DNA of 34,334 bases from an uncultured Lachnospiraceae bacterium (GTDB lineage: Bacteria > Bacillota > Clostridia > Lachnospirales > Lachnospiraceae): NCBI GenBank assembly GCA_964385485.1, contig CAYLPF010000001.1, positions 1 through 34,334 on the forward strand, written 5' to 3'. The notes beneath the pieces were generated by a model. It was given only the letters and a program-made list of their open reading frames with translations. It ran no database searches and was not told the origin of the DNA. This document shows, one piece after another, positions 9,048-33,694 of the stretch; the stretch's first letter is position 1, and each line of letters begins with the position of its first letter. Both the position numbers and the translations under genes were made by a program.

Positions 9048-9644
9048 ATGTCCAGAGACTCTTACCATGAATATTTTGACGGTTATATGGAACTTTCAGA
9101 AGTGGATAAAAAGGGAAGGGAACGGTTAAAGCGTGTCTATATCGCCGACTATTATCAGAGCGTTCTTTCAGAAGACGGCTGGAAGAGGATGAAAATGCTT
9201 TGCACAGGGCTCTGGATGGGTGATATAATGATCTATATTTTTGCGTCTGTCCAGAATCAGCCCTGCAATACCGCTGATTTTGTAGATATTGCGCAAATGT
9301 TATGCTTTCTTCCGCTGTTACTGTGGAGCTTTACAGCCTGTGAATATCTGGTTTCTCCCAGAAAGCTGACGATTGGAAAATTCCGTTCCATTCATGAGCC
9401 TTTTATCCGAAGAGCCTATGCAAGCGCCGTCTTTGAGGGAATATTGGCGGCGACTGTGCTGGCCAACGTTGCGGCGCGGGCGGATCTGCGGACGACCGGG
9501 AGTCTCGGGATCCTTTTCTTATATGCGGCAGGTGCGCTTATGGCGGCCTGGATTGGCAGACAGGAACAGGGGCAGAAATACAATCTTGTAGAAAATGACA
9601 TTCAACCGCCGGAAAATGGGATCTTGATCCGGGACAGTAAATAG
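9048..9644 (+). CDS. Uncharacterised membrane protein (about 4 TM), paralogue of 18214..18876
   Basis: RBS GGAGGAG; four hydrophobic segments. Shares SYH..F.GY, R.Y.ADY, IAQML and PR..TIG with the second copy. Confidence 0.8.
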   Translation: MSRDSYHEYFDGYMELSEVDKKGRERLKRVYIADYYQSVLSEDGWKRMKMLCTGLWMGDIMIYIFASVQNQPCNTADFVDIAQMLCFLPLLLWSFTACEYLVSPRKLTIGKFRSIHEPFIRRAYASAVFEGILAATVLANVAARADLRTTGSLGILFLYAAGALMAAWIGRQEQGQKYNLVENDIQPPENGILIRDSK

Positions 9645-18109: not shown

Positions 18110-18213
18110 GTAATGCCGCCGAAGGGCAGGAAATGGGAATTACTGCAGGATTGCGGGCTGTATCAGAACAGAATGTGGTGTGGAATTATGGATTATGCGG
18201 GATGGGAGGAAAC

Positions 18214-18876
18214 ATGGGAAGGTATTCAGAGCGTTTCTGGATGAGAATACAGGAATATGAGAAGGATGAAATGAGAGACCGGATATCCCACAGCACATCC
18301 TATCACAGCTTTTTCCAGGGGTATTCGGAGCATCGTGTCCGGAGGAGAAATGGAAGGGGATACTGTATCGAACGGATCTACACGGCGGATTATTGCAAAT
18401 ACAGGGAATCCGATGCTTTGTGGAGATTCAGGAAAGCATATTATCTGATGGTCCTGGCGGCGGCGGTGACTGCTCTGATTGCAGGAGGAGTGAGCTGCTC
18501 AGAGCTGAACCGGACGAAAATCATTGGGATTGCGCAGATGCTGGAATGGATTCCGCTGGCATATCTGGCTTACTCTATGTTTTTTCAGCTGGAGGCTCCC
18601 CGCAGGATGACCATCGGGGATTACAAGGCATCTTCTGTTAAGCTGAAGTGGGGAGCCCTTATTGCCTCTGTTTATCTGGCCGGCGTTTTTCTGGTCATGG
18701 CTGCTGTAAAGCTTTCCGGCGGAAGCGTTTTTGAGGGCGGCGACAGGACAGCGCTGCTTGGGGAGGCGGTCGGCGCGGGGCTCTGCTTTCTGATTTTCCG
18801 GATGGAGCACAGGCGGGAGATTGAATGGGTCAAAAACGGCATACAGGTTCCGGCGGACGCGAATGAAATCTGGTAA
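18214..18876 (+). CDS. Uncharacterised membrane protein (about 4 TM), paralogue of 9048..9644
   Basis: ORF 18133..18876; ATG 18214 follows GGGAGGA. Motifs SYHSFFQGY, RIYTADY, IAQML, PRRMTIG. Confidence 0.8.
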   Translation: MGRYSERFWMRIQEYEKDEMRDRISHSTSYHSFFQGYSEHRVRRRNGRGYCIERIYTADYCKYRESDALWRFRKAYYLMVLAAAVTALIAGGVSCSELNRTKIIGIAQMLEWIPLAYLAYSMFFQLEAPRRMTIGDYKASSVKLKWGALIASVYLAGVFLVMAAVKLSGGSVFEGGDRTALLGEAVGAGLCFLIFRMEHRREIEWVKNGIQVPADANEIW

Positions 18877-18972
18877 TGAAGGGAATCAATACGGCTCTGC
18901 CGTAGTGATCATAAAGTAAATGAAAATCCGCGAAAGCGGCCAGTGAGAAATCTCACGAGAAAGGAGAAAAAC

Positions 18973-20616
18973 ATGAAAAGAAAAGTTGTATCAGTATTAT
19001 TAGCGGCAGCTATGGCTGGCTCTATGAGCTGTACTGCCCTTGCGGCAGACGACGCGGTTGCAATCGGCGGCGCAATCGGCGGCGCACAGGAAGAGACGGT
19101 TGATGTGTCTGCTTCTGCACAGCGGTCAAAAATTACGATGGATGCAGACCGCCTGAGCCTGAATCCGATGGGGCTTTGGGGCTCAGCGACAGAGGTTTAT
19201 TCCATATATGAAATGCTGTTCCAGGTATCCAATGGCCTTGGCAGCGAGATGGTGCCTGTTCTGGCAGATGGCAGCCGCGGAGAGTTTGGCGGGTATGATC
19301 ATGAGGCTGGTTCTGATGAGTATACCTTCTATATCCATGAAGGAATCCATGACCATGCCGGAAATCCCCTGACGGCAGATGATGTGGTTTTTTCTTTCCA
19401 GAAAACGCAGGAATATGGACAGACCTCCGGATGGAGCGTTGTGAAGAGCTGGGAAGCAATTGACGACACAACTGTTAAGATGACCTGCGAAAGGGAGTTG
19501 ATCAACAAGGGTGAGCTTGAAAATATTGTGATGCGCTGTTTTATGTTTACAGAGGCAGCGTATAATGCATCTGCATCTGAATTCAATTCGGATGCATGTG
19601 GCACAGGCCCGTACAAGCTGGCTGATTATGTAGAAGGCGCTTCGGTTTCTTTAATAAAGGATGACAATTACTGGGCGGCGGACAATGAGGATAAGCAGCG
19701 CTGCCAGTATGCGAATGTTGATGAGATTGATATTATCAACATTACAGAAGCTACACAGAAGGTTACCGCCCTGACAACAGGCACAACAGATATTTGCCAG
19801 GCGCTTCCGGCTGATTATATTGATCAGTTTTCAGCTGACGGACAGTATGGGGCGCAGTTCAATCTGGCGACAGCTCCGGCAAACGGTGTGTTCTATCTGG
19901 AAGCAAATGCAAATGAAGCAAGTCTTTGCAATGATGTAAATCTTCGTAAAGCAATTTTCTATGCAGTAGGTTCTGCGGAAATGTGTCAGGGACTTGGGGA
20001 AAATTCAAACAGCCCGGTTGCAACTTTGGGTACCAGTTGCTTCCCGGATTATAATCCGGAATGGGAAACCTGGGAGAATTATCAGACATCAGCAGCGGAT
20101 CCGGAAAAAGCAGCGGAATATCTTGCACAGAGCAGCTACAACGGGGAAGAGCTGGTGATCCTCTGTGAGTCCGGCGGTTCTGACAGTGCGGTACTTGTGC
20201 AGGCTCTTCTGCAGGCATCCGGTATCAGCGCTTCCATTTCCGCGCTTGAGAGAAACTCTCTGAATGCAGTATCTTCTGACCCGAATGAATGGGACCTGTA
20301 TATAAACAGTACACGTTCTTCTGATTATGTGGCAAACATCTGGTCCCATGTCATGAATGCCGATTCCTTTGCGACGGGAACCACGGAAGGCTTTTATGAC
20401 AGCGAAGAGTATCAGGATCTTCTGAAAGCAGCTGTAAGTGTAGACGCCACTACAGAAGATATGGACGCATTCTGGCAGTATACTGTGGATAACGCACTGA
20501 TTGAAGGCACCAACTGCAGTGTTACATATATTGCTTATCCGGCGGATGAGATCACAAGCCTGTGGCTGAATGATAAGTCTGTCGTTCTTCCGGGTACATT
20601 TGTGTACGCGGAATAG
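18973..20616 (+). CDS. Family-5 (Opp/Dpp-type) ABC substrate-binding protein, cassette 2
   Basis: RBS AAGGAG before ATG 18973; signal peptide; IYEML, LTADDVVFS, GTGPYK, NLRKAI, DPEKAAEYLAQSSY. Confidence 0.9.
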   Translation: MKRKVVSVLLAAAMAGSMSCTALAADDAVAIGGAIGGAQEETVDVSASAQRSKITMDADRLSLNPMGLWGSATEVYSIYEMLFQVSNGLGSEMVPVLADGSRGEFGGYDHEAGSDEYTFYIHEGIHDHAGNPLTADDVVFSFQKTQEYGQTSGWSVVKSWEAIDDTTVKMTCERELINKGELENIVMRCFMFTEAAYNASASEFNSDACGTGPYKLADYVEGASVSLIKDDNYWAADNEDKQRCQYANVDEIDIINITEATQKVTALTTGTTDICQALPADYIDQFSADGQYGAQFNLATAPANGVFYLEANANEASLCNDVNLRKAIFYAVGSAEMCQGLGENSNSPVATLGTSCFPDYNPEWETWENYQTSAADPEKAAEYLAQSSYNGEELVILCESGGSDSAVLVQALLQASGISASISALERNSLNAVSSDPNEWDLYINSTRSSDYVANIWSHVMNADSFATGTTEGFYDSEEYQDLLKAAVSVDATTEDMDAFWQYTVDNALIEGTNCSVTYIAYPADEITSLWLNDKSVVLPGTFVYAE

Positions 20617-20636
20617 AGAACGGTTAACTGTAGACC

Positions 20637-20672
20637 ACGGTTCCGGTCCGGAATATGGCCGGAGCCGTTTTT
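20637..20672 (+). terminator. Stem-loop with short T tract after substrate-binding protein gene 2 (partial terminator or 3' stabiliser)
   Basis: ACGGTTCCGGTC-N8-GGCCGGAGCCGT followed by TTTT. The next gene starts 15 nt later. Confidence 0.6.
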
Positions 20673-20686
20673 AGAAGGATAAAAAG

Positions 20687-21655
20687 ATGAGAAGATATAT
20701 CATTAAGAGACTTTTAGCGTTGATTGCTATTATGTTTTGTGTATCCGTGATTATTTTTACGATCATGTACTTCGTCCCTGGCGACCCGGCCCTTATTGTC
20801 CTTGGCTCCAGTTCTTCTGTGGCAGAGAGGGAGGCATACCGGAACGCACTGGGATTAGACGATCCATATCTGATACAACTGGGACGTTATCTGTATCAGA
20901 CGTTTATAAAACTGGATCTTGGCAATTCCTATATTACGAAAGCTCCAATTATCACAGAATTTGCACTGCGTGTGCCGCGGACCTTTATCCTTGGAATGAT
21001 CTGTCTGGTTATCAATGTGATCATTGGAATTCCTCTTGGCATTACCTGCGCACTGCATCAAAACAGCTGGATCGACCATCTGATCTCTGTATTGGCAATG
21101 ATCGGCGTTGCGATTCCCGGATTCTGGCTGGCTATGCTGATGGTACAGCTTTTCTCCCAGGAGCTTGGCTGGCTGCCGCCGATGGGAATTGATTCATGGA
21201 AATGCTGGATCATGCCGGTGATCGCAGGAGCCCTGGGTGGTATCGCAAATAATCTGCGGATGACACGAAGCGCTGTTCTGGAAACTGTCAGGGCAGATTT
21301 TGTTACAACAGCAAGGGCGAAAGGATTGGCTGAAAAAAAGGTGACGTATAAGCATATGCTTCCCAATGCGCTGATTCCGATCCTGAATCAGCTGGGCGGA
21401 CAGTTTGGAATGATTATTTCCGGTACAGTTGTGATCGAGACAGTATTTTCATTTCCCGGAGTAGGCACCTACATGCTCAGCGGTATCAGTAACCGGGACT
21501 ATCCGGTGGTTCGGGGATGTGTGCTGATCCTGGCGATTTTCTCCGCAGCAGCGGTGCTGCTGGTAGACCTTGCATATGGCCTGATCGATCCGCGGATCAA
21601 GGCACAGTATGTTTCTTACGCGGCAAAGAAGGGAGGCAGGAAAAGTGGAAAATAA
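20687..21655 (+). CDS. Opp/Dpp-family ABC permease (DppB-like), cassette 2
   Basis: PGDPA, LGLDDP, DFVTTARAKG, RDYP, DPRI. Confidence 0.92.
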   Translation: MRRYIIKRLLALIAIMFCVSVIIFTIMYFVPGDPALIVLGSSSSVAEREAYRNALGLDDPYLIQLGRYLYQTFIKLDLGNSYITKAPIITEFALRVPRTFILGMICLVINVIIGIPLGITCALHQNSWIDHLISVLAMIGVAIPGFWLAMLMVQLFSQELGWLPPMGIDSWKCWIMPVIAGALGGIANNLRMTRSAVLETVRADFVTTARAKGLAEKKVTYKHMLPNALIPILNQLGGQFGMIISGTVVIETVFSFPGVGTYMLSGISNRDYPVVRGCVLILAIFSAAAVLLVDLAYGLIDPRIKAQYVSYAAKKGGRKSGK

Positions 21656-22526
21656 TCAGGCTTCTCAAAAAAACAGGAGAAAAAAGCAGTCCAATCTTTC
21701 TATGATCTGGCACAGGCTGATGCAGGACAAAGTCGCAGTTGCGGGATTGGTTGTAATGATCGTATTGATCCTGGTCAGCGTTTTTGCACCTTTGCTTGCG
21801 CCTTATGATCCGTTTGCAATGGATCTGGCAGCTATGAAACAGGGACCTTCGCAGGCACATTGGTTTGGCACAGACAGTATGGGACGGGATGTTTTTTCCA
21901 GAATTCTGTATGGCGGAAGATATTCTCTGGCTCTTGGGTTTATTGGCTCAGTATTTACAGCCCTGATTGGTACAGTCTTTGGCACGGTTATCGGGTACAT
22001 CGGCGGCGCTTTTGATAATATCTGTATGCGTGTCTGCGACGTGTGGCAGGCAATTCCCGGACAGCTTCTGGCAATTGTGATTTCTACAGCGCTGGGACCG
22101 GGGTTTGTTAATACAATCCTGGCAATGTCTGTAGGCGGTATTCCAATGAGCATCCGAAGTACAAGGGCCATGTGCCTGAAGGAACGCGAAATGGAATACC
22201 TGGAAGCCGCGCAGTCCTATAACTGCAGCAAGACGAAAATCATGTTTAAGCATATGCTCCCTAACATCATTTCGCCGACCATCGTCGGTACGACAATGTC
22301 CGTCGGAGGGACTATTATGGGGGCGGCGGGGCTTTCTTTTATCGGGCTTGGTATCCAGCCGCCGACACCGGAGTGGGGAGCGATGCTTTCTGACGCAAGA
22401 AGCCTGGCGCTCCTGTATCCGCATATGATGATTTTCCCCGGTTTGCTGATTGCGGTTACAGTACTTGCAATTAATCTGTTTGGTGACGGGCTTCGTGACG
22501 CGATGGATCCCAAACTTAAGAAATAG
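21645..22526 (+). CDS. Opp/Dpp-family ABC permease (DppC-like), cassette 2
   Basis: GTG 21645 after GGAGG. GTDSMGRDVFSR, EYLEAA, LSFIGLGIQPPTPEWG, GDGLRDAMDP. Confidence 0.92.
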   Translation: MENNQASQKNRRKKQSNLSMIWHRLMQDKVAVAGLVVMIVLILVSVFAPLLAPYDPFAMDLAAMKQGPSQAHWFGTDSMGRDVFSRILYGGRYSLALGFIGSVFTALIGTVFGTVIGYIGGAFDNICMRVCDVWQAIPGQLLAIVISTALGPGFVNTILAMSVGGIPMSIRSTRAMCLKEREMEYLEAAQSYNCSKTKIMFKHMLPNIISPTIVGTTMSVGGTIMGAAGLSFIGLGIQPPTPEWGAMLSDARSLALLYPHMMIFPGLLIAVTVLAINLFGDGLRDAMDPKLKK

Positions 22527-22540
22527 GAAGGTTAGAGAAC

Positions 22541-23515
22541 ATGGAAAACAATAAGTATATTGAAGTGAAAGACCTTGTTGTTGAATATACCTCTGATGGA
22601 GATATCGTACAGGCAGTAAACGGAGTCAGCTTTTCTTTAAAGAAAGGGGAAACGCTTGGCCTGGTGGGAGAGACCGGTGCAGGAAAAACAACAATCGCCA
22701 AATCTATCCTCCGGATTCTTCCGGATCCGCCGGCAAAGGTGAAGGCGGGGCAGATCATGCTGGATGGAAAGGATTTGATGCAGATATCGGAAAAGGAGAT
22801 GCTTTCTATCCGGGGGAATAAAATTTCAATGATTTTTCAGGATCCAATGACTGCATTAAATCCGGTAATGTCTGTGGGAAGCCAGATCACAGAGGTAGTT
22901 TCTTTACATAATGATTTCACTGAAGCCGAGGCCAGGCAGCGGACTGTGGAAATGCTGGAAATGGTAGGGATCCCGGCAGAGCGTTACGTGGAATTCCCGC
23001 ATCAGTTTTCCGGTGGTATGAAACAGAGAGTGGTGATCGCGATGGCGTTGGCTTGTAATCCGGAGCTGCTGCTGGCAGATGAACCGACTACCGCCCTGGA
23101 CGTAACGATCCAGGCACAGGTTTTGGATATGATCAGAGAATTGCGTGAAAAGTTTCAGACGGCAATGATCTTGATCACACACGATCTTGGTATTGTCGCT
23201 GAAACCTGTGATAAGGTGGCAGTTGTCTATGCGGGCCACATTGTGGAAAGCGGCTCAAAGGAAGACATTTTCCGGCATGTGACGCATCCATATACCCAGG
23301 GATTATTTGATTCTATTCCCCAGATAAATGATGATTCGAGAAGACTGAAGCCAATTGAGGGTATGCCGCCGGATCCGACAAACCTGCCAAAGGGATGCGT
23401 ATTTGCACCGAGATGTAAGTTCGCATCAGAGGAATGCCGCAAGGGTGAGATACCGGCAGTTGAGATTACTCCAGGACATTTTTGCCAGTGCCTGAGAGCA
23501 AAAAAGGGGGTCTGA
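22541..23515 (+). CDS. Opp/Dpp-family ABC ATP-binding protein (DppD-like), cassette 2
   Basis: [28 protein letters not shown], Cys-rich tail. Confidence 0.93.
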
Positions 23516-23518
23516 AAA

Positions 23519-24472
23519 ATGCCAGCCTTACTTGAAATTAAAAATCTGAAAAAGTATTTTTATGTTCCGGCAGGGACGAACCATGCAGTGGATGATATTA
23601 CGATGAAAATCGAAAAAGGAAAAACCATGGGGGTTGTCGGAGAATCGGGCTGCGGAAAATCCACACTGGGGCGAACGATCATCAAGCTTCATGAGGCAAC
23701 AGATGGACAGATACTGCTGAACGGGCAGGATATCACCAATGTAAAAGGCAGGGAACTTCGCAAGGTCCGTGAGAAAATGCAGATTATTTTTCAGGATCCA
23801 TATGCATCCCTGAATCCCCGGTATTCCATGGATGAGGTGATCCGTGAGCCGTTGAAGGAATCCCGGCGTTTTGACAGAAAGCAGATTGAAGAACGGGTCA
23901 ATGAGCTGATGGACCGTGTGGGGATTGAAGACAGACTCCGTTATGCGTATCCTCATGAACTGGATGGCGGCAGACGGCAGCGTGTCGGCATTGCCCGGGC
24001 GCTTGCGCTGAACCCGGATTTTATTATGTGCGATGAGCCGGTATCTGCATTGGATGTATCCATTCAGGCGCAGGTACTGAATCTGCTTATGGATCTGCAG
24101 GAGGAAAACAATCTGACTTATATGTTTGTGACGCATGATCTTTCTGTTGTACGTCATATTTCGGATAATATCAGCGTGATGTATCTGGGGCAGCTGGTAG
24201 AAACCAGCCCTGCAAAAAAGCTGTTTGAACGCCCGCTGCATCCATATACCAAGGCATTGCTTTCTGCGATTCCATCCACAGATATTGACCATCCGATGAA
24301 GCGGATCCTTTTAAAAGGGGAAATTACTTCCCCTATTAATCCACAGCCGGGATGCCGTTTCGCAAAGAGATGCCCATATGCAGCAAAAGCGTGTCTGGAG
24401 CCGCAAAAACTGGAAGAAATCGAGACAGGGCATTTTGTATCATGCTGCAGAGTAAAAGAAGTGAATGGTTGA
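23519..24472 (+). CDS. Opp/Dpp-family ABC ATP-binding protein (DppF-like), cassette 2
   Basis: [32 protein letters not shown], Cys-rich tail. Confidence 0.93.
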   Translation: MPALLEIKNLKKYFYVPAGTNHAVDDITMKIEKGKTMGVVGESGCGKSTLGRTIIKLHEATDGQILLNGQDITNVKGRELRKVREKMQIIFQDPYASLNPRYSMDEVIREPLKESRRFDRKQIEERVNELMDRVGIEDRLRYAYPHELDGGRRQRVGIARALALNPDFIMCDEPVSALDVSIQAQVLNLLMDLQEENNLTYMFVTHDLSVVRHISDNISVMYLGQLVETSPAKKLFERPLHPYTKALLSAIPSTDIDHPMKRILLKGEITSPINPQPGCRFAKRCPYAAKACLEPQKLEEIETGHFVSCCRVKEVNG

Positions 24473-24635: not shown

Positions 24636-24654
24636 CATATGCAGGAGGAGAAAA

Positions 24655-26661
24655 ATGACAAATCAGGTCAACTTTAGCAATCGTGAATTTATATGGCCAT
24701 ATGAAATTAAATATGGAAAGGTTACACATGTGAATGTGGATGTCCTGGTGGTTGGCGGTGGCCTGGCGGGAAGCTGCGCCGCAATTGCTGCCGCCCGGAG
24801 AGGGGTAAAGGTGGCCGTAGCGGATAAAGCGCCGATTAAGCGAAGCGGATGCGGCGGCGCTGGTATGGATCACTGGAATAATCTTCTTTCTCATCCGAAT
24901 AGTCCCATGACCCCGGAAGAGAATTTGCAAAAGGGCAATACAAAGGGCCGTATGGGGCACCGTGATTATATTGCGGTAAAGGGCACATGGGAAGCCCTGA
25001 TGTATCTGAAAGAGATGGGATTGCCGATAGAAGCGGATCTGGATGATTTAAAGGGAGCGGCGACTATTGATGAGAGGACAGGGCTTTATAAAGCGTATGA
25101 TTATAGGGAACTGATTGCTGCGAAGCTGCGCGGCGGTCAGTATTTGAAGCCTGTACTGTACCAGGAAATGAAGAAACAAAAGGTACAGTTTTTTGAAAGG
25201 GTAATGATTAATAAAGTATTTACAGAGGAAAACAGGCAGGGCGCCCCGGTAACAGGCGCATCGGGGATCTCCCTGGAGACCGGAGAAATGTACGTGTTTC
25301 ATGCTCCGGCTGTGATTTTAACCTGTGGTTATTCCTGCACAATCTGGACAAACAATCTGGAAATGACAGGCAATAGCTGGCGCTGGGATCCGAATGAAAT
25401 CGGAGAAGGGCTTGCGATGGCATGGGATGTGGGAGCAGAGATAGATGGTATGTACAAAAATGGGAAAGAAGGAAATCCTTCTCCATTTGCATGGCCCAGA
25501 TTTGGTGTGGGAAATCCGCATAATACATGGTTTCCCTGCACAATTGTTGATAATAATGGGAAAGAAATTCCCTGGGAAGATATAGATGGAAATATTCTAA
25601 ACTCTGTTGAACAGAGAAATCTGCCGACAGCTACGCAGGAATACTGTGGCTCTACTATCAGTGATGTTTATAAACATGCGAAAAGCCCGGGACTGATCCA
25701 TGATCTCCCACAGCGTATTCGGGACGGTGAGTTTGAGCTTCCGTTCTGGGCGGATCTGGCAGGTATGCCGGAGGCGGAACGCCGCAGTATCTGGGGAATG
25801 ATGATCGGCAATGAAGGGAAGACAAGGTATACGGTCTTTGATCTGTATACAAGAGCTGGCTTTAATCCAGATCAGGATATGTTAATGGCGCCGGTCATGA
25901 CACCGGAAGGCTATAACAATGGCGGATGGTTTCACGGAGCCCCGGATGCATGTAAAAGCTGGCGAAGCGAGTCTTTTGGAATGCAGGCGCAGCCGGCAGT
26001 GGATTGGAACCTGATGACGACGGTGCCGGGTCTGTTTGCCGCAGGAGCAAACAGCGGTCTGGAGGGGAGCTCTTATGCGTGTTCTTCCGGGTTTTATGTG
26101 GGAAACCGGGCAGCAGAATTTTCGTCAGATAAGGTTCCAAAGGCGATTACAGAAGAAGAAATAAAAAAGACTGCATCCCACAATTATGCGCCCATAAAAC
26201 GCTTTACAGAAAACCCGGAGGAAAATTTCATTTCATGGAAGGAATTGTGGGCCGGATCGGCACGTGTGATGCAGCAGTGCTGCGCAGAGTATAAAACCTC
26301 TCCGATTCTTGAACAGGGATTAAAGTGGATTGCATCCATACGAAAAAATGAGGCTACGCATACTTTTGCCAGAAATCCACATGAGTTGGCAAGAGTGTTG
26401 GAGTGTGATACAAGGCTCACTATTTCAGAGATGTATCTTCATGGGTGTAAAGTGAAAGCAGAGGCGGATGAGCAGAGTCTGCCAGATGACACTTATATAT
26501 TCTGCAGTCAAAGGGATGGCCGGATGAGGATCCGATATGAGCAGACGCAGTATTGGCTGAAAGCGCCCTGGAGCAATTCTTATCTCGAAAATTATGAAGC
26601 ATGCCGTACTGGTGAAAGAGAAAAATATGATCTGAAAAAGGAGGAAGCACAAAATGAGTAA
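24655..26661 (+). CDS. FAD-dependent oxidoreductase, APS-reductase-alpha (AprA)/fumarate reductase flavoprotein superfamily, substrate unknown
   Basis: DVLVVGGGLAG Rossmann motif, DKAPIKRSG, AVILTCG, G.GLAMAW..GAE, MTTVPGLFAAG and a helical C-terminal domain. RBS AGGAGG before ATG 24655. Confidence 0.85.
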   Translation: MTNQVNFSNREFIWPYEIKYGKVTHVNVDVLVVGGGLAGSCAAIAAARRGVKVAVADKAPIKRSGCGGAGMDHWNNLLSHPNSPMTPEENLQKGNTKGRMGHRDYIAVKGTWEALMYLKEMGLPIEADLDDLKGAATIDERTGLYKAYDYRELIAAKLRGGQYLKPVLYQEMKKQKVQFFERVMINKVFTEENRQGAPVTGASGISLETGEMYVFHAPAVILTCGYSCTIWTNNLEMTGNSWRWDPNEIGEGLAMAWDVGAEIDGMYKNGKEGNPSPFAWPRFGVGNPHNTWFPCTIVDNNGKEIPWEDIDGNILNSVEQRNLPTATQEYCGSTISDVYKHAKSPGLIHDLPQRIRDGEFELPFWADLAGMPEAERRSIWGMMIGNEGKTRYTVFDLYTRAGFNPDQDMLMAPVMTPEGYNNGGWFHGAPDACKSWRSESFGMQAQPAVDWNLMTTVPGLFAAGANSGLEGSSYACSSGFYVGNRAAEFSSDKVPKAITEEEIKKTASHNYAPIKRFTENPEENFISWKELWAGSARVMQQCCAEYKTSPILEQGLKWIASIRKNEATHTFARNPHELARVLECDTRLTISEMYLHGCKVKAEADEQSLPDDTYIFCSQRDGRMRIRYEQTQYWLKAPWSNSYLENYEACRTGEREKYDLKKEEAQNE

Positions 26662-27010
26662 TGCGTTTGTTTATACAAATCCAACGGGTCCTACGAGAGC
26701 AGTCACAATTGACGCTTCCAGATGTGTAGGATGTAACGCATGTGCAAATATTTGCCGGATTCAAACTATTTTGCCGAATCATATAGCAGGAGAGCCTCCG
26801 GTGGTGGCCTATCCTGACGAATGCTGGTATTGTGGCTGCTGCGTGGAAGTCTGCAGAACCGGAGCGCTGAAGATGAATCTGCCGATTAACCAACGTATTT
26901 TTTTCAAAAGGAAAGAGACAGGCGAGGTATTTCGCATCGGAGCGGTGGAGAGCCCGCAGAAGAGCTATTTTGTTCCGCCTTATGGATGGAGAAAGGAGAA
27001 GAACCGATGA
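26654..27010 (+). CDS. 2x[4Fe-4S] ferredoxin, AprB-like beta subunit
   Basis: CVGCNACANIC and PDECWYCGCCVEVC motifs plus a C-terminal tail. Overlaps the flavoprotein stop. Confidence 0.88.
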   Translation: MSNAFVYTNPTGPTRAVTIDASRCVGCNACANICRIQTILPNHIAGEPPVVAYPDECWYCGCCVEVCRTGALKMNLPINQRIFFKRKETGEVFRIGAVESPQKSYFVPPYGWRKEKNR

Positions 27011-28485
27011 ACAGCAGGCAGACGGAACTGAGTTGTTATATTCAGGAGAAAAAAGGCGGAACTGTTTCTTTGCTTCCTGTGCTCCACAGGGCAAAAGCGC
27101 TTTATGGGGAAATAAATATTGAATTAGAGAGAATGATTGCAAGGGAAATGGAGATTCCGTTTTCAAGGGTCGCAGCAGCAGTTACGTTTTACTCTGCGTT
27201 TAATGGGATGGATGATGGAAACGCAGATGAGCGTTTTTTAAAGCTCCCGGAAAATCCATATCAGGTTGAGTGGATTCTGAATCACCCGGAGGGATATCAG
27301 GCTGTTCAGAAGGTATTGAGGGAGCATACCGATGTGATCGCGCTTTTAAGAGAAGCCAGGGTCTGTGGAAAAAGCGGTTCGGGATTTCCTGTCGCAAGCA
27401 AATGGAGCCTTACAAAAGATACTCCGGGTGATGTAAAGTACATCATCTGTAATGGCAGCGAAGGGGAGGGAAACACTTATAAGGATTACCTGCTCCTCTG
27501 CAGAAAGCCGGAGACGGTGATTGAGGGAATGATCCTGTGCAGTTTGATGACAGGAATCGAACAGGGTTTTTTATATATCCGCGCAGAGTATCAGGAAGCT
27601 ATGGAACAGGTCGGGAAAGCCATTGCAAAGGCATATGCAGAGGGATTTCTCGGCGAGCATATCTGCGGCAGCGATCACAGGTTCCATCTGGAGGCTGTGC
27701 TTGGCGGAGGCGCCTATGTCAGCGGGGAAGAAACCGGGCTTTTGCAGGCGCTGGAAGGGAAACGTTCAGAGCCGAGACTGAAGCCGCCGTATCCCGGTGT
27801 CAGCGGATTATATGGTAAGCCGACCATTATCAACAATGCGGAGAGTTTTGCGGCGGCAGCGTCTCTGACAATTCATGGCGCAGAAAATTTCCGGAAGATG
27901 GGAACAGAAAGCGCTGGCGGGAGTAAGCTGTATACAGTCTGCGGCTGTGTAAAATGTCCGGGGATTTATGAGGCGCCGCATCATTTGACAGCGGCAGAGC
28001 TATTGGAAACAGCAGGAGGGGCTTTGCCGGGCAGAAGCGTGAAAGGTTTCCAGATCGGAGGCGGCGCGACAGGAAGTTTTGGCGGAATTGACAGCATGGA
28101 TACGATTCTCGATTACCAGAGTTTGCGGTCGGCCGGCCTGGCACTTGGAACGGCAAGCATTTACTTCATTGATGCAGATGAGGAAGTGCCGCGGTTGGCC
28201 TTAAAAAGCATTTCATTTTTGCAGACTCAGAGCTGCGGCATGTGTACGGCTTGCCGGTTTGGATTAAGCGAATTGACTGTAAATCTGGAGTCGCTCTGCA
28301 ATGGGCTTGGCACGCAGAAGACGTTGAATGAACTGAAAGAATTATGTACTTATATCAAAGAGACTTCCAGATGTGCATTAGGGCAGGCAGCTCCGACGGC
28401 GCTGGATACAGCTTTGCGTGAATTTGGCAAGGAGTTTGAAGAACTTTGCAGAGAGGAGGATTCTTATGAGTACTATCAGCTGTAA
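27007..28485 (+). CDS. NuoF/HydB-like FMN- and NAD(H)-binding subunit with a fused N-terminal NuoE helical fragment
   Basis: LLPVLH...AVTFYSAF (NuoE N-domain), GKSGSGFPVASKW, YIICNGSEGE, GAYVSGEETGL..LEG...PR.KPPYP, SLBB domain and N3 cluster CGMCTAC...C. ATGA overlap with the ferredoxin. Confidence 0.88.
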   Translation: MNSRQTELSCYIQEKKGGTVSLLPVLHRAKALYGEINIELERMIAREMEIPFSRVAAAVTFYSAFNGMDDGNADERFLKLPENPYQVEWILNHPEGYQAVQKVLREHTDVIALLREARVCGKSGSGFPVASKWSLTKDTPGDVKYIICNGSEGEGNTYKDYLLLCRKPETVIEGMILCSLMTGIEQGFLYIRAEYQEAMEQVGKAIAKAYAEGFLGEHICGSDHRFHLEAVLGGGAYVSGEETGLLQALEGKRSEPRLKPPYPGVSGLYGKPTIINNAESFAAAASLTIHGAENFRKMGTESAGGSKLYTVCGCVKCPGIYEAPHHLTAAELLETAGGALPGRSVKGFQIGGGATGSFGGIDSMDTILDYQSLRSAGLALGTASIYFIDADEEVPRLALKSISFLQTQSCGMCTACRFGLSELTVNLESLCNGLGTQKTLNELKELCTYIKETSRCALGQAAPTALDTALREFGKEFEELCREEDSYEYYQL

Positions 28486-29860
28486 AATTAACAATCAGGA
28501 AATCACATGTGAAGCCGGCGTTACGATTTTAGAGGCCGCAAGGGAGGCTGGGATCCATATTCCGACACTGTGCTATATGAAGAATTTAAATAAACCGGCA
28601 GCCTGTCGTATCTGCATTGTGGAAATTGAAGGAATGCCAAGACTGATGCCGTCCTGTGTGACACAGGTGAAAGAGAACATGGTGATCTATACAGAAAGTG
28701 AGAAGGTAATCGCTTCCAGAAAGCGTACGCTGGATCTGATATGCAAGAGACACCGCATGGATTGCGAATATTGCCCGGATTATACTTTTTGTGAGCTTCA
28801 CGCGAGAATACGGGAATTGGGACTGGATGAAAGAAAATATAGTGAGGTTTATCAGGAACGATGTGCCGATGAGTCCTCGCCCTGTATTGTAAGAGATTCC
28901 TCCAAATGTATTCGCTGCCGCAGATGTGTGGCTGCCTGTAAGGCACAGGGCGTAGAGGCAATCAGCGCATTGTTCCGCGCAGACAAGACAATCACAGGCG
29001 CACAGGTACCTATGGCGGAGACCAACTGCATCGGCTGCGGGCAGTGTGTGAAGAACTGTCCAACGGGTGCATTGTTTATAAAGGATGAAACAGATCTGCT
29101 GTGGAGGGCAGCCAATAATAAAAAAAGAATTGTATTTGGTATTACACAGCAAAGCGCAGAAAATATCGGAATGTTTTTTGGCGAAAAGGAAGCAAAGAAT
29201 CAAATGGGTAAGCTGGCTGGGATATGCGGGCAGATTGGTGCAGATGCTGTCTATGATTTAACAGGGATTGAGCAGCAGTCTTTGCCGGCGGCCGCAGCGA
29301 AAGCGGTACATCGCCTGGAACAGGGAGAGGAGAATCTGATGATCTCTTTTTGCCCGGCAGCGAAACGTCATTACAGTGGAAACACAAAATTAGTGGAAGC
29401 GGCTGCTGCGGAAGAGCTGTTTGCTGCAAAGGTGATTGACGCTTATTCACAAAGAGGGGTATCCAGAGAAGAACTGTTCCTTGTATACGTTTCCCCGTGT
29501 GCATCCATAAAACAGAAACATCGTTGTGATGCGGTTCTGACAACAACAGAATTGTTTCAGTGGATACAGAGAGCCTGCGTAAGCAGATATACAACTCTTG
29601 AGGTGTGGAAAAATACAGAACCGGTGAATGCCAAAAAGCTGGAGGATACAGAAGCGTTATATAAATCCTATAACGATGGACTGCAAATACTGTTGCGTGA
29701 ACATTTGGGAAGAGAGGTAACGGTGGTTCATGCAGACGGCATTACAGCTTGTGAAAAATTAAATGCAGAAGCGCATACAGATGTGATCTGGCTGACAGCG
29801 TGCCCGGGAGGATGTGAAAATGGCGGCGGTCAGTTCCGGACACAGGGGTATCGGAAGTGA
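28466..29860 (+). CDS. [FeFe]-hydrogenase-like iron-sulfur protein with a degenerate H-cluster domain
   Basis: [2Fe-2S] (IPTLC..CRICIVE..SC), His-ligated cluster HRMDCEYC.....C, and 2x[4Fe-4S] (CIRCRRCVAAC; CIGCGQCVKNCP). Eroded H-motifs ISFCP, SPCASIK and TACPGGCENGGGQ. Confidence 0.85.
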   Translation: MSTISCKINNQEITCEAGVTILEAAREAGIHIPTLCYMKNLNKPAACRICIVEIEGMPRLMPSCVTQVKENMVIYTESEKVIASRKRTLDLICKRHRMDCEYCPDYTFCELHARIRELGLDERKYSEVYQERCADESSPCIVRDSSKCIRCRRCVAACKAQGVEAISALFRADKTITGAQVPMAETNCIGCGQCVKNCPTGALFIKDETDLLWRAANNKKRIVFGITQQSAENIGMFFGEKEAKNQMGKLAGICGQIGADAVYDLTGIEQQSLPAAAAKAVHRLEQGEENLMISFCPAAKRHYSGNTKLVEAAAAEELFAAKVIDAYSQRGVSREELFLVYVSPCASIKQKHRCDAVLTTTELFQWIQRACVSRYTTLEVWKNTEPVNAKKLEDTEALYKSYNDGLQILLREHLGREVTVVHADGITACEKLNAEAHTDVIWLTACPGGCENGGGQFRTQGYRK

Positions 29861-29915
29861 AGCAAAAAAGTAAGGGCAGTTTTCAGATATGCCGGTGGCA
29901 AAAAGGAAGGAAGAA

Positions 29916-31193
29916 ATGGCTACAATAGTAAAAGCAGGATTCGGAAAAGGTGTGATATGTTTTCCTGAAAGTATGTTTCCCATAGAAGGATTTCAGGGGA
30001 TCCATGATCATCCGAATGTACGTTTGATGGTTTTAGAGTTTGAGAAAGAAAGTATCGCTGTTCTGGCTGTGGAATTAGTCATTATACCGGGCAGTTCCAT
30101 TGATAACTGGAAGAAAATGATCAGCGATGCATTTTATATTCCAATAAGTAAAGTGGTTGTACACATGACGCATGCAATCACAACACCGCATGAGCCAGGA
30201 CCGTCAGGGCCGCCGGACAGACGGCCGGAGCTTACTCAGGAGGATTTGAGGAAGCGGAAACTATATCATGAAGCAACGGATGAAGCTGTTAAGACTGCAA
30301 TTGCAGAAGCCAGAATGAGCAGAAAAACGGCTACCTTTGGTTGGGGGAACGCTTTATGCGATGTGAATATAAACTGTGACATTGCGACTCCATTTGGCTG
30401 GTGGCTTGGAGAAAATGAGAGCGCCGCGGTTAACCACAGGATGACGGTATTGCGGGTAAATGATCTGCAGGGACAGATATCAGGGCTTCTGGTGAGCTAT
30501 GGCATGAAACCGGCTGCGATTGATAATTCAGGGAGAAAAGAAGGTATTCGTCAGATATCTTCTGAGGTGGCAGGAGTATTTTGCAGAAAGCTGGAGGAAA
30601 GGTATCATGTACCGGTATTGTATTGCGTCAGTGCCGGAGGGAATCAGGTTCCTAAAAAAACATCATTAAAAAACAGACTTGATCAGGCCGGGAAGGTTAT
30701 TGAAGCCGATGAGGGAGTGGAACAGGGATTTCTTTATGCAGAGGAGCTTGGGGAGCAGATGGCGCAGACAGGTATAAGTATTGTAGATTCTATTACCTGC
30801 ACAGAAGATACACCCGCAGTCGGATGGGAACGGACAGGCATGACCTGGAAGCGGAAAAAAGGAGGCCCGCGTAAACCGATGCGTGAGATGGTCTGCATTC
30901 CGGAAAAAGAGATAGAATTGACCGCGGACCTGTTCTGCATGGGCAGTACGGCATTTGTATTTGTAAGACCGGAGATGACTGTGGAGGCAGAAGAAATTCT
31001 TTTAGAAAAGAGTCCGTTTGCCCGGACGATCCTGATGACGCTGACGAACGGTGAGATGAAATGCCTGCCGGAGCAAAGCGCTTATGAAAGAGCGACGTAT
31101 GAAGCACAGGGATCAAACCTGATGCCTGGCGCGGCAGAGTCATTGATCGACCGGATCGTTTCAAAACTTTTGCAGATGAAGATGGAATCATGA
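29916..31193 (+). CDS. Neutral/alkaline ceramidase-family protein, degenerate metal site
   Basis: KAGFGK..I start, THAITTP, MTVLRV, ISSEVAG, SAGGNQ.P, FV.PE, YEA; collinear with the next gene. Confidence 0.72.
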   Translation: MATIVKAGFGKGVICFPESMFPIEGFQGIHDHPNVRLMVLEFEKESIAVLAVELVIIPGSSIDNWKKMISDAFYIPISKVVVHMTHAITTPHEPGPSGPPDRRPELTQEDLRKRKLYHEATDEAVKTAIAEARMSRKTATFGWGNALCDVNINCDIATPFGWWLGENESAAVNHRMTVLRVNDLQGQISGLLVSYGMKPAAIDNSGRKEGIRQISSEVAGVFCRKLEERYHVPVLYCVSAGGNQVPKKTSLKNRLDQAGKVIEADEGVEQGFLYAEELGEQMAQTGISIVDSITCTEDTPAVGWERTGMTWKRKKGGPRKPMREMVCIPEKEIELTADLFCMGSTAFVFVRPEMTVEAEEILLEKSPFARTILMTLTNGEMKCLPEQSAYERATYEAQGSNLMPGAAESLIDRIVSKLLQMKMES

Positions 31194-31232
31194 TAGTAAC
31201 TGTGAAGGAACTGAACAGTTACTTATCATGAT
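31187..31232 (+). other. 17-bp stem-loop overlapping the stop codon between the two ceramidase-family genes
   Basis: ATCATGATAGTAACTGT-N11-ACAGTTAC(T)TATCATGAT, with no poly-T. Confidence 0.7.
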
Positions 31233-31253
31233 GGATATATGGGAGGATACTAT

Positions 31254-32609
31254 ATGGAAAACAAATTGTATTGTGGTGCGGCGAAAGGGAAGATTACTCC
31301 ATCGGAAGTATTGCTTCCGGATCTCAGGGGACTGATGGATCGCCATTTCGGGCCGGTAATTGATGATTTATTTCTCAGAGTGATCGCGCTGAAAAATGGG
31401 AATGACAGGGTATTGCTTGTTACATTTGATTTGGATAAGGTGCCGTGCCCGGAGAGCTATCTGAAGGTATTGGCGGAAACTACCGGGGTTCCGGAAGAAA
31501 ACATTTTACTTGCGGCAATCCATACACACACTGCGCCGGTTGCGGGAACGCGCCCGAATGAAGGACCGAATAATATAGCAGCGAAATCTGCGGAAGTACA
31601 AGGTGCGACTCATCAGTATGAAGAATTTGTAAAAGCAGTATTGGCTGCGACCGCGAAAGATGCCGTTTCTAAAATGGTTCCGGCCAGAATGGGATTTGGA
31701 AAAGGGAAAAGCTACATTGGCATAGACAGGAAGCAATTTTATGAGACAGAAGCAGACGGGGCAGTTCACAGGAAATATGGGATTGGCGGTAATCCAGAGT
31801 CTCCCATTGACCGTACAGTATTCATCCTGCGGTTTGAGGACCTGTCAGGCAGGCCGATTGCGTTTTTTATCAACTTCCCGGTTCACTGCTGTGTGCTGAA
31901 CGGACATACGGTGTTTGAAGGTAAGTTGGGGATCAGTGGAGACATTGCCGGTAATGTATGCCGATGGAACGAAGAAAAATATCCGGGCGCGGTGACTTTA
32001 TGGACAAGCGGGGCAGCAGGTGACATTAATCCTGTAATGATGTATGAAATGGGATATCCGGATCCGGTGACCGGAAGAATGAAAGGCGGGAAAGTGGAAG
32101 GGGATCACACAGAGATTCTGACCTGTATTTCAGCGATTCATTATGATGATATTAAGAAGGTAAACCGTACAATCATCTGTGACCGGACGGATGTGAAGCT
32201 TGGGGGCATGGCGGAAATCTCTGAGACACCGGGGAAAAGAGAACCATTTAAGATCCGCCTTCATATGATGCGGCTTGGAGAAATCTTCATTCTTGGAGCC
32301 AGCGGTGAACTGTATGATGTATTTGCTAAGAGTATCAGGAAACGTATCGCAGCCCGGGAACTGATCGTAATTAACCATGACGCAAGCCTGATGGGAGATG
32401 GCGGTTATATTATAGATGATGAAACATTGCTTCAGCCAAAACCGATGCTTCCGGGAGCAGGCCATACAAATCAGCAGCCGGGATTTTTTATGCAGTCTTT
32501 GTTTGAACATACCACATCCATGTATGAAAAGCTTGATCCCAGAGCTGTTAACAATGAACCGGATCCGAAAGGTCCTGGTTTTGGGAAAATGGAGCCGATG
32601 CAGCTGTAA
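31254..32609 (+). CDS. Neutral/alkaline ceramidase-family zinc amidohydrolase
   Basis: GAAKGKITP, DDLFLRVIAL, AIHTHTAP, INFPVHC, ISGDIAG, GAAGDINP, SGELY. RBS GGGAGG. Confidence 0.82.
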   Translation: MENKLYCGAAKGKITPSEVLLPDLRGLMDRHFGPVIDDLFLRVIALKNGNDRVLLVTFDLDKVPCPESYLKVLAETTGVPEENILLAAIHTHTAPVAGTRPNEGPNNIAAKSAEVQGATHQYEEFVKAVLAATAKDAVSKMVPARMGFGKGKSYIGIDRKQFYETEADGAVHRKYGIGGNPESPIDRTVFILRFEDLSGRPIAFFINFPVHCCVLNGHTVFEGKLGISGDIAGNVCRWNEEKYPGAVTLWTSGAAGDINPVMMYEMGYPDPVTGRMKGGKVEGDHTEILTCISAIHYDDIKKVNRTIICDRTDVKLGGMAEISETPGKREPFKIRLHMMRLGEIFILGASGELYDVFAKSIRKRIAARELIVINHDASLMGDGGYIIDDETLLQPKPMLPGAGHTNQQPGFFMQSLFEHTTSMYEKLDPRAVNNEPDPKGPGFGKMEPMQL

Positions 32610-32656
32610 TAACTGCAAACATTTCAGGACAGGAAAAAGACAAGGAGCTGCTGAAT

Positions 32657-33694
32657 ATGATTATAGATTCAAATATGTACTATGTACCGGAACAGATTTT
32701 TGTGGATGATAAGTTAATGAAACGTTTTTTGGAGGAAGTACCGGCGGAGTATGGCTGGTACGGACACTGTGAGGAAATTGAGGGGACAGGGAAAAGACAG
32801 GTGATTTTGGAGAAGCCGATGGGAAGCCAGAATCTGAATTATCTTCAGGGAGATTATGAGGTTCAGGTGCAATTGGCGGATCTTGATAAAGCTGGTGTGG
32901 ATAAAGCTCTTTTGAAAGTGCCGGGATGTCATGAATGGATGAGTTTAGACATGTGCCGGTTGTTTAATAATGGGATGTATGAACATTATCGGAAAAGCTG
33001 CGGAAGATTGATACCGCTTGCGGTGGTGCCTCCCTATGGAACCCCAGAAAGCCTGGAAGAATTGGAGCGCTGCCATAAGAAGCTTGGCATGACAGCGGTA
33101 CAGGTCAGCGCCCATTATGGAGACGCATATCTGGATGAACCGGAATTTACAGCTTTTTTTGAAAAAGTAAATGAATTGAAAATGAATGTATATGTGCATC
33201 ACACACCGATTCCGGCAGAATACCAGTCTTTTATTACATATAACAATGTACGGCGTTCTTATGGGCGTATTGTAGATCAGGGACTTGCTGTAGGCCGTGA
33301 GGTTTTCAGCGACCTCTTTGAACGTTGTCCGGACATCAGATTTGTTCATTCAATGATGGGGGGCGGTTTTTTCGCGATTGTGAATATGATGTTTCCGAAT
33401 CAAGCCAAGGCAAAAGAAGAAGTCAGCCGTTTTAAATCTGACAGCGGGCAGATAAAAGACCGTTTTCAGAAACATATCTATTTTGAAATGTCCCATGCCC
33501 AGCCATGGGGAAAAGATGTACTGGAGCTGGCAGTAAAAGTATTGGGTGCGGATCATATTATCTGGGGATCATCCTGTCCGGTTCGAAAAGAATGGCTCCT
33601 GGAGGGCCCGGATTTTGTAAGAGAGCTGAACATTACAGAGCAGGATAAAGAACTGATCCTGGGAAGGAATGCTGAAAGAATTTACTGTATTTGA
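32657..33694 (+). CDS. Amidohydrolase-superfamily protein (Amidohydro_2/ACMSD-LigW-like) with non-canonical metal ligands
   Basis: MIID start, DLDKAGVDKALL, YLDEPEF..FF, VYVHH, FERCPDIRFVHSMMGG, GADHIIWGSSCP, ILGRNAERIY. Confidence 0.82.
   Translation: MIIDSNMYYVPEQIFVDDKLMKRFLEEVPAEYGWYGHCEEIEGTGKRQVILEKPMGSQNLNYLQGDYEVQVQLADLDKAGVDKALLKVPGCHEWMSLDMCRLFNNGMYEHYRKSCGRLIPLAVVPPYGTPESLEELERCHKKLGMTAVQVSAHYGDAYLDEPEFTAFFEKVNELKMNVYVHHTPIPAEYQSFITYNNVRRSYGRIVDQGLAVGREVFSDLFERCPDIRFVHSMMGGGFFAIVNMMFPNQAKAKEEVSRFKSDSGQIKDRFQKHIYFEMSHAQPWGKDVLELAVKVLGADHIIWGSSCPVRKEWLLEGPDFVRELNITEQDKELILGRNAERIYCI

Follow-up and report, generated by a model that had tools for sequence, protein, structure and literature searches.

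A candidate NADH-linked complex of gut Clostridia with an AprAB-like flavoprotein head and a retained, eroded hydrogenase domain

The principle of feeding a separate catalytic head from a HydABC/NuoEFG-like module is known from NAD-linked formate dehydrogenases and, in the available parts of PMC9304861, from the BfuABC enzymes of types 2 and 3 (Wor-, Bam-, Fdh/HylABC- and NiFe-Bfu), whose A subunit is non-catalytic. The gene order hydC-hydB-hydA and a short non-bifurcating beta subunit have been described for Hyd1ABC of Syntrophomonas wolfei and HydAB of Syntrophus aciditrophicus (excerpts of PMC7311640). AprAB-type heads are known from the adenosine 5'-phosphosulfate (APS) reductase AprAB (1jnr, 2fja) and from the reductase of 3'-phosphoadenosine 5'-phosphosulfate (PAPS; 8a8o, excerpts of PMC10322725). 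Here we describe a locus that shares features with all of these systems, found on a contig of an uncultured Lachnospiraceae bacterium (CAYLPF010000001.1, assembly GCA_964385485.1; the whole stretch of 34,334 nucleotides that was analysed is called the window). Four plus-strand open reading frames (ORFs) at 24655..29860, with consecutive genes overlapping by 8, 4 and 20 bp, encode an AprA-fold flavoprotein (the FAD subunit), an AprB-like ferredoxin, a fusion of a NuoE stub with NuoF, and a HydA-like protein with an eroded H-domain (the remnant). We propose, with about even confidence, that they make up a soluble non-bifurcating NADH:substrate reductase, in which the AprAB-like head would probably reduce a plant-phenolic compound and a helix of the remnant would hold the parts together.

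The four overlapping genes and their positions had been reported in an initial annotation and were borne out, and the Pfam and NCBIfam domain calls agreed with it: FAD_binding_2 in the first gene, a 2x[4Fe-4S] protein in the second, the NuoE N-terminus with Nuo51, SLBB and NADH_4Fe-4S in the third, and Fer2_4, NADH-G_4Fe-4S_3, Fer4 and a weak Fe_hyd_lg_C in the fourth. The same annotation knew of no complex of this composition, and we found none described in the open-access literature of PMC and bioRxiv, a scope with the subscription journals mostly outside it. The available parts of PMC9304861 held no AprA- or Frd-type head, and its full text gave 0 matches for adenylyl, fumarate and succinate. 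The modular principle is known; new are the head of AprAB type, the link to polyphenols and the H-domain that persists as a pseudo-enzyme with a motif of its own. Judging by its sequences, the complex would be neither an APS reductase nor a hydrogenase nor a Bfu enzyme.

The head appears to be of AprAB-like build but not an APS reductase. As in AprAB, it is encoded by an alpha-beta gene pair, and its FAD subunit has the same fold and a loop of the non-covalent-FAD type. PAPS/APS reductases were the best structural matches of the AlphaFold model of the FAD subunit (predicted local distance difference test score, pLDDT, 88.2) in Foldseek (VIA against 8a8o: Z 39.2, rmsd 4.3, 497 aligned), with an identity of about 20%; the superfamily fold is also that of the soluble Frd/Sdh-family reductases (fumarate, urocanate, TfrA), although the FAD subunit is closer to AprA. 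Unlike AprA, it lacks a C-terminal segment, has invariant residues of its own family (D72, H73 and the M383-K389 motif) and scored well below the curated cut-offs TIGR02061 (92.5/641.75 bits) and NF005331 (100.8/557 bits). The cut-off of the Frd/Sdh flavoprotein profile was also missed (70.6/567.3 bits), and the covalent-FAD His and the dicarboxylate His/Arg motifs of that family were not seen in the FAD-subunit alignments, the C-terminal region included.

For a bridge to AprA, 14 AprA proteins above the cut-off were fetched, the 10 extracted at full length were kept, and their profile was aligned locally (HHalign) to a 116-row alignment of FAD subunits, with the numbering tied to 2fja (A. fulgidus). 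We take N74, W234, R265 and H398 to be the active-site residues of AprA, the sulfite-binding Arg and His among them. N74 was kept (N75 in the window; 106/116 rows), and the three others were replaced: W234 by R243 (106/116), H398 by G442 (109/116) and R265 by N287 (107/116), this last equivalent being the least sure because the capping-domain part of the AprA alignment is weak. The ferredoxin bears both [4Fe-4S] motifs and an invariant W58, which corresponds to the Trp lying between cluster and FAD in APS/PAPS reductases, and PAPS reductase beta was among its matches. An N5-attack mechanism, a FAD-binding Trp (the W234 equivalent) and a beta-subunit Trp are described for PAPS reductase in the available part of PMC10322725. 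The genomic context also differs from that of AprAB, with electrons presumably coming from the NuoF/HydA-derived module. No sat, qmo, dsr, hydEFG or membrane anchor gene was found among the 28 window ORFs scanned, as the initial annotation had stated, but the missing hydEFG carries little weight, because maturases usually lie elsewhere and the source genome assembly (G000, 1.8 Mb) is only 60% complete. ATP sulfurylase genes were scarce in the carrier genomes examined (sat in 0/5, cysD in 1/5), most of which were incomplete or of unstated completeness. The profile scores, the replaced W/R/H residues and the lack of sat in 5/5 carriers agree with that annotation in speaking against an APS reductase.

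The HydA-like protein has the full set of HydA F-clusters, like the non-bifurcating NADH-dependent [FeFe]-hydrogenases. Its structural model (pLDDT 88.7) matched HydA (8a6t_A) with a template modelling (TM) score of 0.86, and the ligands of one [2Fe-2S] cluster (C36, C47, C50, C64), one His-ligated [4Fe-4S] cluster (H96, C100, C103, C109) and two further [4Fe-4S] clusters (C148-C158, C188-C198) were all invariant or nearly so in a 38-row alignment. Unlike those hydrogenases, it has lost the catalytic residues of the H-cluster. We take C299 to be the proton-transfer Cys, and M353, K358 and M497 to be 2Fe-site residues (CpI numbering); their equivalents were F295, S343, I348 and T444 in the window and were variable and non-canonical over the 38 rows, so that the loss of H2-catalytic residues read by the initial annotation extended to all four L1/L2/L3 positions. 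The C299-equivalent Cys was not among the six residue types filling at least 30 of the 38 rows, and it was missing from every remnant in the printed alignment. The protein ends just past L3, without the C-terminal small-subunit segment, and the [FeFe]-hydrogenase cut-offs were missed (NF040763, 257.9/765 bits; TIGR02512, 110.3/405.95 bits). The four cubane Cys were retained in the window (C296, C345, C446, C450) and complete in 33/38 remnant rows.

A motif absent from hydrogenases, R369-x-C-V-S-x-x-T-x4-W381, was found in the remnant, with S, T and W present in 38/38 rows. Mean column conservation was 0.77 over residues 356-381, 0.68 in the F-domain and 0.49 and 0.34 in the rest of the H-domain. 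Among 150 proteins listed from a profile search of 1.84 billion representatives, 35 had the motif, none of them with an intact L1 or L2; 92 had L1 or L2 and no motif, and 23 matched neither, some being motif variants that the pattern missed. In a tree built from the F-domain only (77 rows), 51 remnants and one remnant-identical row formed a single clade (Shimodaira-Hasegawa-like approximate likelihood ratio test, SH-aLRT, 99) nested among 21 intact HydA. This placement and the structural match to HydA uphold the hydrogenase origin that had been supposed for the NAD(H) module. The remnant is under purifying selection: the ratio of non-synonymous to synonymous substitution rates (dN/dS) was 0.25, 0.27, 0.12, 0.21 and 0.21 in five pairs, a sixth pair being saturated. 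These values are well below 1 but above those of the FAD subunit (0.04-0.10), indicating that the remnant is relaxed but not decaying.

An H-domain fold with a cubane and without the 2Fe subcluster is also found in Nar1/NARF/IOP1 of eukaryotic Fe-S assembly; unlike those proteins, which have an independent origin and role, the remnant belongs to a bacterial redox operon and has a clade-specific motif. The best structural matches, PAPS/APS reductase at Z 39.2 and HydA at TM 0.86, would at first suggest that ordinary APS reductase genes simply adjoin an [FeFe]-hydrogenase operon, itself ordinary or decaying, but the profile scores, the replaced active-site residues and the sat and cysD counts argue against the reductase. 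The missing C299-equivalent Cys and the lack of any HydG match in a 100%-complete carrier genome argue against a working hydrogenase, and the dN/dS values against a decaying one, so that this explanation is already largely refuted and very improbable.

By its motifs the NuoF protein is of the non-bifurcating NADH module type, and its activity is predicted. It keeps the Gly-rich NADH loop, the FMN motifs and the N3 cysteines (C410/C413/C416/C456), and it is short, without a C-terminal ferredoxin domain, motifs of which were seen in no NuoF of the clade described below. T/S232, K/S/A234 and Y367 are the non-bifurcating criteria, and A/E232, M234, F367 and GGPSG the bifurcating ones, in the available part of PMC7311640. 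The window NuoF has T/K at 232/234, Y at 367 and no GGPSG, while full-length HydB controls (L041, L136-L139) displayed the bifurcating pattern. BfuABC enzymes are defined by the BfuB clusters B2-B5 in the available part of PMC9304861; these clusters are absent here, and the complex is therefore not bifurcating by that definition. Unlike BfuABC, its A subunit retains an eroded H-domain. Fusions of NuoE and NuoF also occur in some of the NADH-dependent [FeFe]-hydrogenases, but the NuoE part in the window consists of the N-terminal helices alone, without the [2Fe-2S] domain, and an additional FAD/ferredoxin head is present. Most other loci likewise have only these helices fused to NuoF, and a separate NuoE-sized gene occurs at five (L004, L007, L055, L061, L063).

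Related loci were collected by a genome search (45), a metagenome search (best 80 of 392) and whole-genome searches, and a tree was built from 139 family rows and 3 AprA after duplicates and FAD fragments of less than 480 aa had been dropped. The window fell into a 33-row FAD-subunit clade of gut Clostridia (FastTree support 99; SH-aLRT 100 on a 39-row subset), a rare one, with carriers in 2/401 genomes of the sample of the window's order and 5/401 of a family sample. Synteny was counted over the clade rows with at least 3.3 kb downstream (n=24, some rows being close kin). The remnant was kept at 24/24 of these loci and NuoF at 19/24, one of the latter interrupted (L006); at 4/24 (L001, L008, L054, L067) there were only the FAD, ferredoxin and HydA-like genes. 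The remaining locus, L013, encodes a 235-aa ferredoxin::remnant fusion in which about 120 aa of the remnant keep the motif, without F-domain and without cubane or other Fe-S ligands. Of the 106 rows outside the clade (47 with at least 3.3 kb of flank), none had a Nuo or Hyd gene in up to 4.3 kb of downstream sequence. Because gene order is conserved across the clade, the locus is more than a chance arrangement, and from the counts the core consists of three genes with an optional NADH module. Thus, of the four-subunit make-up first proposed, the FAD/ferredoxin/HydA-like core was constant and NuoF was not. The accompanying proposal that the catalytic end of a hydrogenase had been swapped out fails: no partner is more constant than the H-domain, which has been retained as a pseudo-enzyme bearing a new motif.

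The overlapping genes, the remnant at all 24 loci and the L013 fusion that keeps the motif suggest that the gene products very probably form one complex, and that docking of the wire on the head by the remnant's helix is probable. Alternatively, the NuoF/HydA-like pair could be an enzyme of its own, a diaphorase that is co-regulated with the FAD/ferredoxin head but passes its electrons to a soluble carrier, the head working independently. In favour of this, FAD and ferredoxin genes stand alone in most of the wider family, the sister group of L065 and L071-L080 among them, and NuoF was repeatedly lost; however, a separate diaphorase leaves unexplained both why a dead domain gained a near-invariant motif and why L013 keeps only a piece of the remnant, fused to the ferredoxin, and we consider it quite improbable. 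The idea that the motif replaces in trans the deleted C-terminal segment of the FAD subunit was rejected, since the same segment is also missing at the sister loci L065, L071 and L076-L080, none of which has an adjoining remnant. Three short profile matches (P0207, P0223, P0295) look like fragments of a normal HydA-like subunit and not like fusions.

In the proposed single complex, which is highly likely to be NAD(H)-linked when NuoF is present, electrons of NADH would enter at the FMN of NuoF and pass by the N3 [4Fe-4S] cluster to the [2Fe-2S] cluster of HydA and its pair of [4Fe-4S] clusters. A lone cubane at the old H-site could follow only where the four Cys survive; then the ferredoxin clusters, W58 and the FAD would lead to the substrate, the new helix of the remnant docking the wire onto the FAD/ferredoxin head. 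Where NuoF was lost, ferredoxin or the cell's own HydBC may feed the wire; a search for a displaced short NuoF in three genomes with NuoF-less loci (G401, G402, G403) gave full-length HydB-type matches only. As a whole, the more specific idea that the H-domain was exapted into a pseudo-enzyme adaptor, with a lone-cubane relay and a newly evolved docking helix that connects an NADH module to a widespread AprA-fold branch acting on polyphenol-derived rings, is put forward tentatively.

Outside the clade, the ferredoxin of L083 and L108 has a GltD-type NAD(P)H domain located between its two cluster motifs, and an AprB-like ferredoxin with an FNR-type FAD/NAD(P)H tail was found at L048:458-1486 (minus strand; G087). 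These three fusions are independent evidence that pyridine nucleotides can serve this head. The inserts (L083:8120-9943, L108:1764-3569) are whole GltD/NfnB-like FAD/NAD(P)H domains. The wider FAD/ferredoxin family is large and unannotated. It includes tandem paralogous FAD/ferredoxin pairs on metagenome contigs (L073, L074, L081, L094, L109, L111, L112, L114, L130) and a second member in G404 whose ferredoxin ORF continues into a GNAT domain (L172:10996-11913). An intact hydCBA operon of the bifurcating type occupies L041:189-7616 and is followed directly by a distant FAD/ferredoxin pair; this may be a coincidence or a state before recruitment.

The features of the locus and its flanks are given in Table 1.

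Table 1. Features of the locus and its flanks; positions are those of the window
Feature	Positions	Strand	Basis or remark
Co-oriented glycoside hydrolase family 31 (GH31) glycosidase, 247-aa protein of unknown kind and Dpp/Opp-type ABC importer	15647..24472	+	upstream of the four genes
Shine-Dalgarno-like AGGAGG	24643..24648	+	sequence; 5' of FAD gene
AprA-fold FAD subunit, 668 aa, ATG 24655 to TAA 26661	24655..26661	+	domain, profile, model
AprB-like 2x[4Fe-4S] ferredoxin, 118 aa	26654..27010	+	8-bp overlap with FAD gene
NuoE-stub/NuoF fusion	27007..28485	+	ATGA overlap with ferredoxin gene
HydA-like gene	28466..29860	+	20-bp overlap with NuoF gene
HydA F-domain portion of HydA-like gene	28466..29080	+	
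Eroded H-domain portion of HydA-like gene	29081..29860	+	
Clade-specific motif R369-x-C371-V-S373-x-x-T376-x4-W381	29570..29608	+	added helix, candidate docking element
Co-oriented two ceramidase-fold hydrolases and LigW/resorcylate-decarboxylase-like amidohydrolase	29889..33694	+	downstream of the four genes

The upstream set of glycosidase, 247-aa protein and importer was seen again at several related loci. Besides the four genes, the window as a whole encodes two Dpp/Opp-type importers, GH3, GH31, beta-phosphoglucomutase, an esterase, YdjC, NIF3, an AraC regulator, the two ceramidase-fold proteins and the amidohydrolase. The proteins of 9048-9644 and 18133-18876 are paralogous (26-28% identity), belong to no Pfam family and each lie beside a family-5 solute-binding protein; relatives of them recur at many loci of the FAD-subunit clade. 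The tandem ceramidase-fold proteins (29889-32609) are 22% identical, many related loci have such genes, and a further copy lies on G000:C109. No close paralogue of the four genes was found in the source assembly, 60% complete as it is, and there was no Rfam match; a scan for promoters and terminators was at chance level (33 vs 28.0 and 17 vs 16.5), and atlas searches returned generic Frd/AprA and Fe-hydrogenase clusters only.

A phenolic-derived substrate is fairly probable from the genomic context. The window amidohydrolase was closest to the LigW 5-carboxyvanillate decarboxylase (E 1.9e-14), and a UbiD cluster lies beside 4 loci, its scanned member being VdcC-like (452.6 bits, cut-off 650); LigW and VdcC are both decarboxylases of hydroxy-aryl acids. 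Esterases, a lactonase, a PhlG-like hydrolase, GH3 and LysR regulators were recurrent neighbours, glycosidases and TRAP/ABC importers were also seen, and a metallo-beta-lactamase-fold hydrolase cluster not present in the window was found at 15 loci. PF18089 (DAPG hydrolase PhlG) was used as a marker of the phloretin-hydrolase family, to which we take phloretin hydrolase to belong. It was found in 17/23 carrier genomes, G000 included, against backgrounds of 10/201 genomes (two of them carriers) and 8/201 (one being G000), and in 2/22 genomes with distant family members. With this enrichment and few marker-positive genomes having the operon, it counts as an accessory trait that only some polyphenol users possess. 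Catenibacillus decagia, the isolate of L004, is a cultured flavonoid degrader in the available part of PMC11170127, the text of which gave 0 matches for "adenylyl" and "fumarate". G526, which encodes exactly P0098, a protein labelled Eubacterium oxidoreducens by its sources, has an operon of a divergent LysR gene, the four genes and a TRAP transporter; E. oxidoreducens degrades phloroglucinol and requires H2 or formate (PMC10470551, in excerpt).

Other genes beside PhlG or the wider family were seen in passing. On G000:C28 (L194) the PhlG-like hydrolase shares one operon with a Dpp-type importer, MATE and SDR, with similar cassettes at L198, L200 and L202, and on G1009:C1, G1012:C13, G655:C3 and G089:C3 the PhlG-like domain is part of much longer open frames (about 820 aa), which points to a fusion. 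A cluster beside distant members at L036, L086, L106, L107 and L122 has as its scanned member a molybdopterin enzyme with a pyrogallol-transhydroxylase-like domain (L122:4251-5372), and URO-D/MtaA-like methyltransferase-fold genes adjoin distant members at L024-L028, L044, L071, L079 and L179. G000:C192 (L197:392-2938) encodes a FAD_binding_2 flavoprotein of 849 aa that includes a fused fumarate hydratase alpha domain, and an unrelated Cas12a (Cpf1) gene lies near a distant family member (L039:13928-17590).

The same NADH-linked complex might instead act on a non-phenolic substrate. This could be a sugar acid or lactone stemming from the glycosidases encoded nearby, or an oxidised sulfur compound that flavin N5 would attack, as happens in APS reductase. 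The window neighbours GH31, GH3, beta-phosphoglucomutase and YdjC deacetylase, together with lactonase and Gfo/Idh/MocA genes at some loci, are consistent with the former, but the PF18089 enrichment is specific to the FAD-subunit clade and in G526 and G655 the operon contains no glycosidase gene and is limited to the four genes together with LysR and a TRAP transporter. The window GH31 reached 89.9/553 bits with the closest alpha-glucosidase model, and a link to sulfoquinovose is weak. A sulfur compound would agree with the kept N74 of AprA, with an arylsulfotransferase-family cluster beside 4 distant members and with sulfatases beside one, although the sulfite-binding Arg and His are replaced. 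Overall, a non-phenolic substrate seems improbable.

As to direction, a reductive reaction is probable, and reversal of the same complex, with a phenolic- or glycoside-derived substrate oxidised at the FAD and electrons moving up the wire to NAD+, is unlikely, if less so than a non-phenolic substrate. The anatomy would be identical, the Sdh/AprA superfamily has oxidising enzymes, and the NAD modules of, for example, formate dehydrogenase and complex I, which are likewise non-bifurcating, work both ways. However, the potential of the FAD of AprA-type enzymes is usually well above that of NADH, favouring reduction, and fermenting gut bacteria would be expected to profit from electron sinks.

Several observations weigh against an NADH-driven reductase of phenolics. 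Nothing in the sequence fixes the direction, and many neighbours are sugar-related and not aromatic. No PF18089 match was found in 6/23 carriers, several matches, that of G000 included, were divergent (E about 1e-11 to 1e-23), and the operon was present in only 2/10 PF18089-positive genomes of the family sample. BKACE, the phloroglucinol-pathway lyase family, was modestly enriched (10/23 vs 34/201) and was not found in G000, and kinship and shared habitat inflate all such co-occurrence counts. As for the wire, NuoF was missing at 5/24 loci, with at least 4 changes on the tree; that of L006 (L006:12288-13682) was broken by an in-frame stop, being intact in the close relative L005; and that of the window has diverged in its nucleotide-binding motifs, with the NADEG-type motif substituted and drift in one FMN-site motif in its subgroup. 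Three or four cubane Cys were gone in 5/38 remnants, which means that the H-site cluster is no universal relay, and only one ferredoxin::remnant fusion was seen, as L013 itself was the sole match among 22 candidates in a follow-up search.

The AprAB-type head would join the catalysts wired to HydABC/NuoEFG-like modules, and the remnant would let one follow how an enzyme domain loses its activity and turns into an adaptor. Intermediate states are still found in the clade, namely loci with a full NuoE, with a NuoE stub, without NuoF, with the cubane Cys lost, and with the remnant fused to the ferredoxin. The labels AprA, Sdh/Frd or hydrogenase that annotation pipelines give to this family can inflate the counts of sulfate reduction and H2 metabolism in gut metagenomes. 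The complex is a testable candidate enzyme of gut polyphenol metabolism, with a cultured host in C. decagia and probably a second in E. oxidoreducens. If the tentative adaptor reading is true, the complex would fill a gap in the anaerobic breakdown or conversion of polyphenols by both of these organisms, and would provide a natural template by which NADH could be wired to any AprAB-type head.

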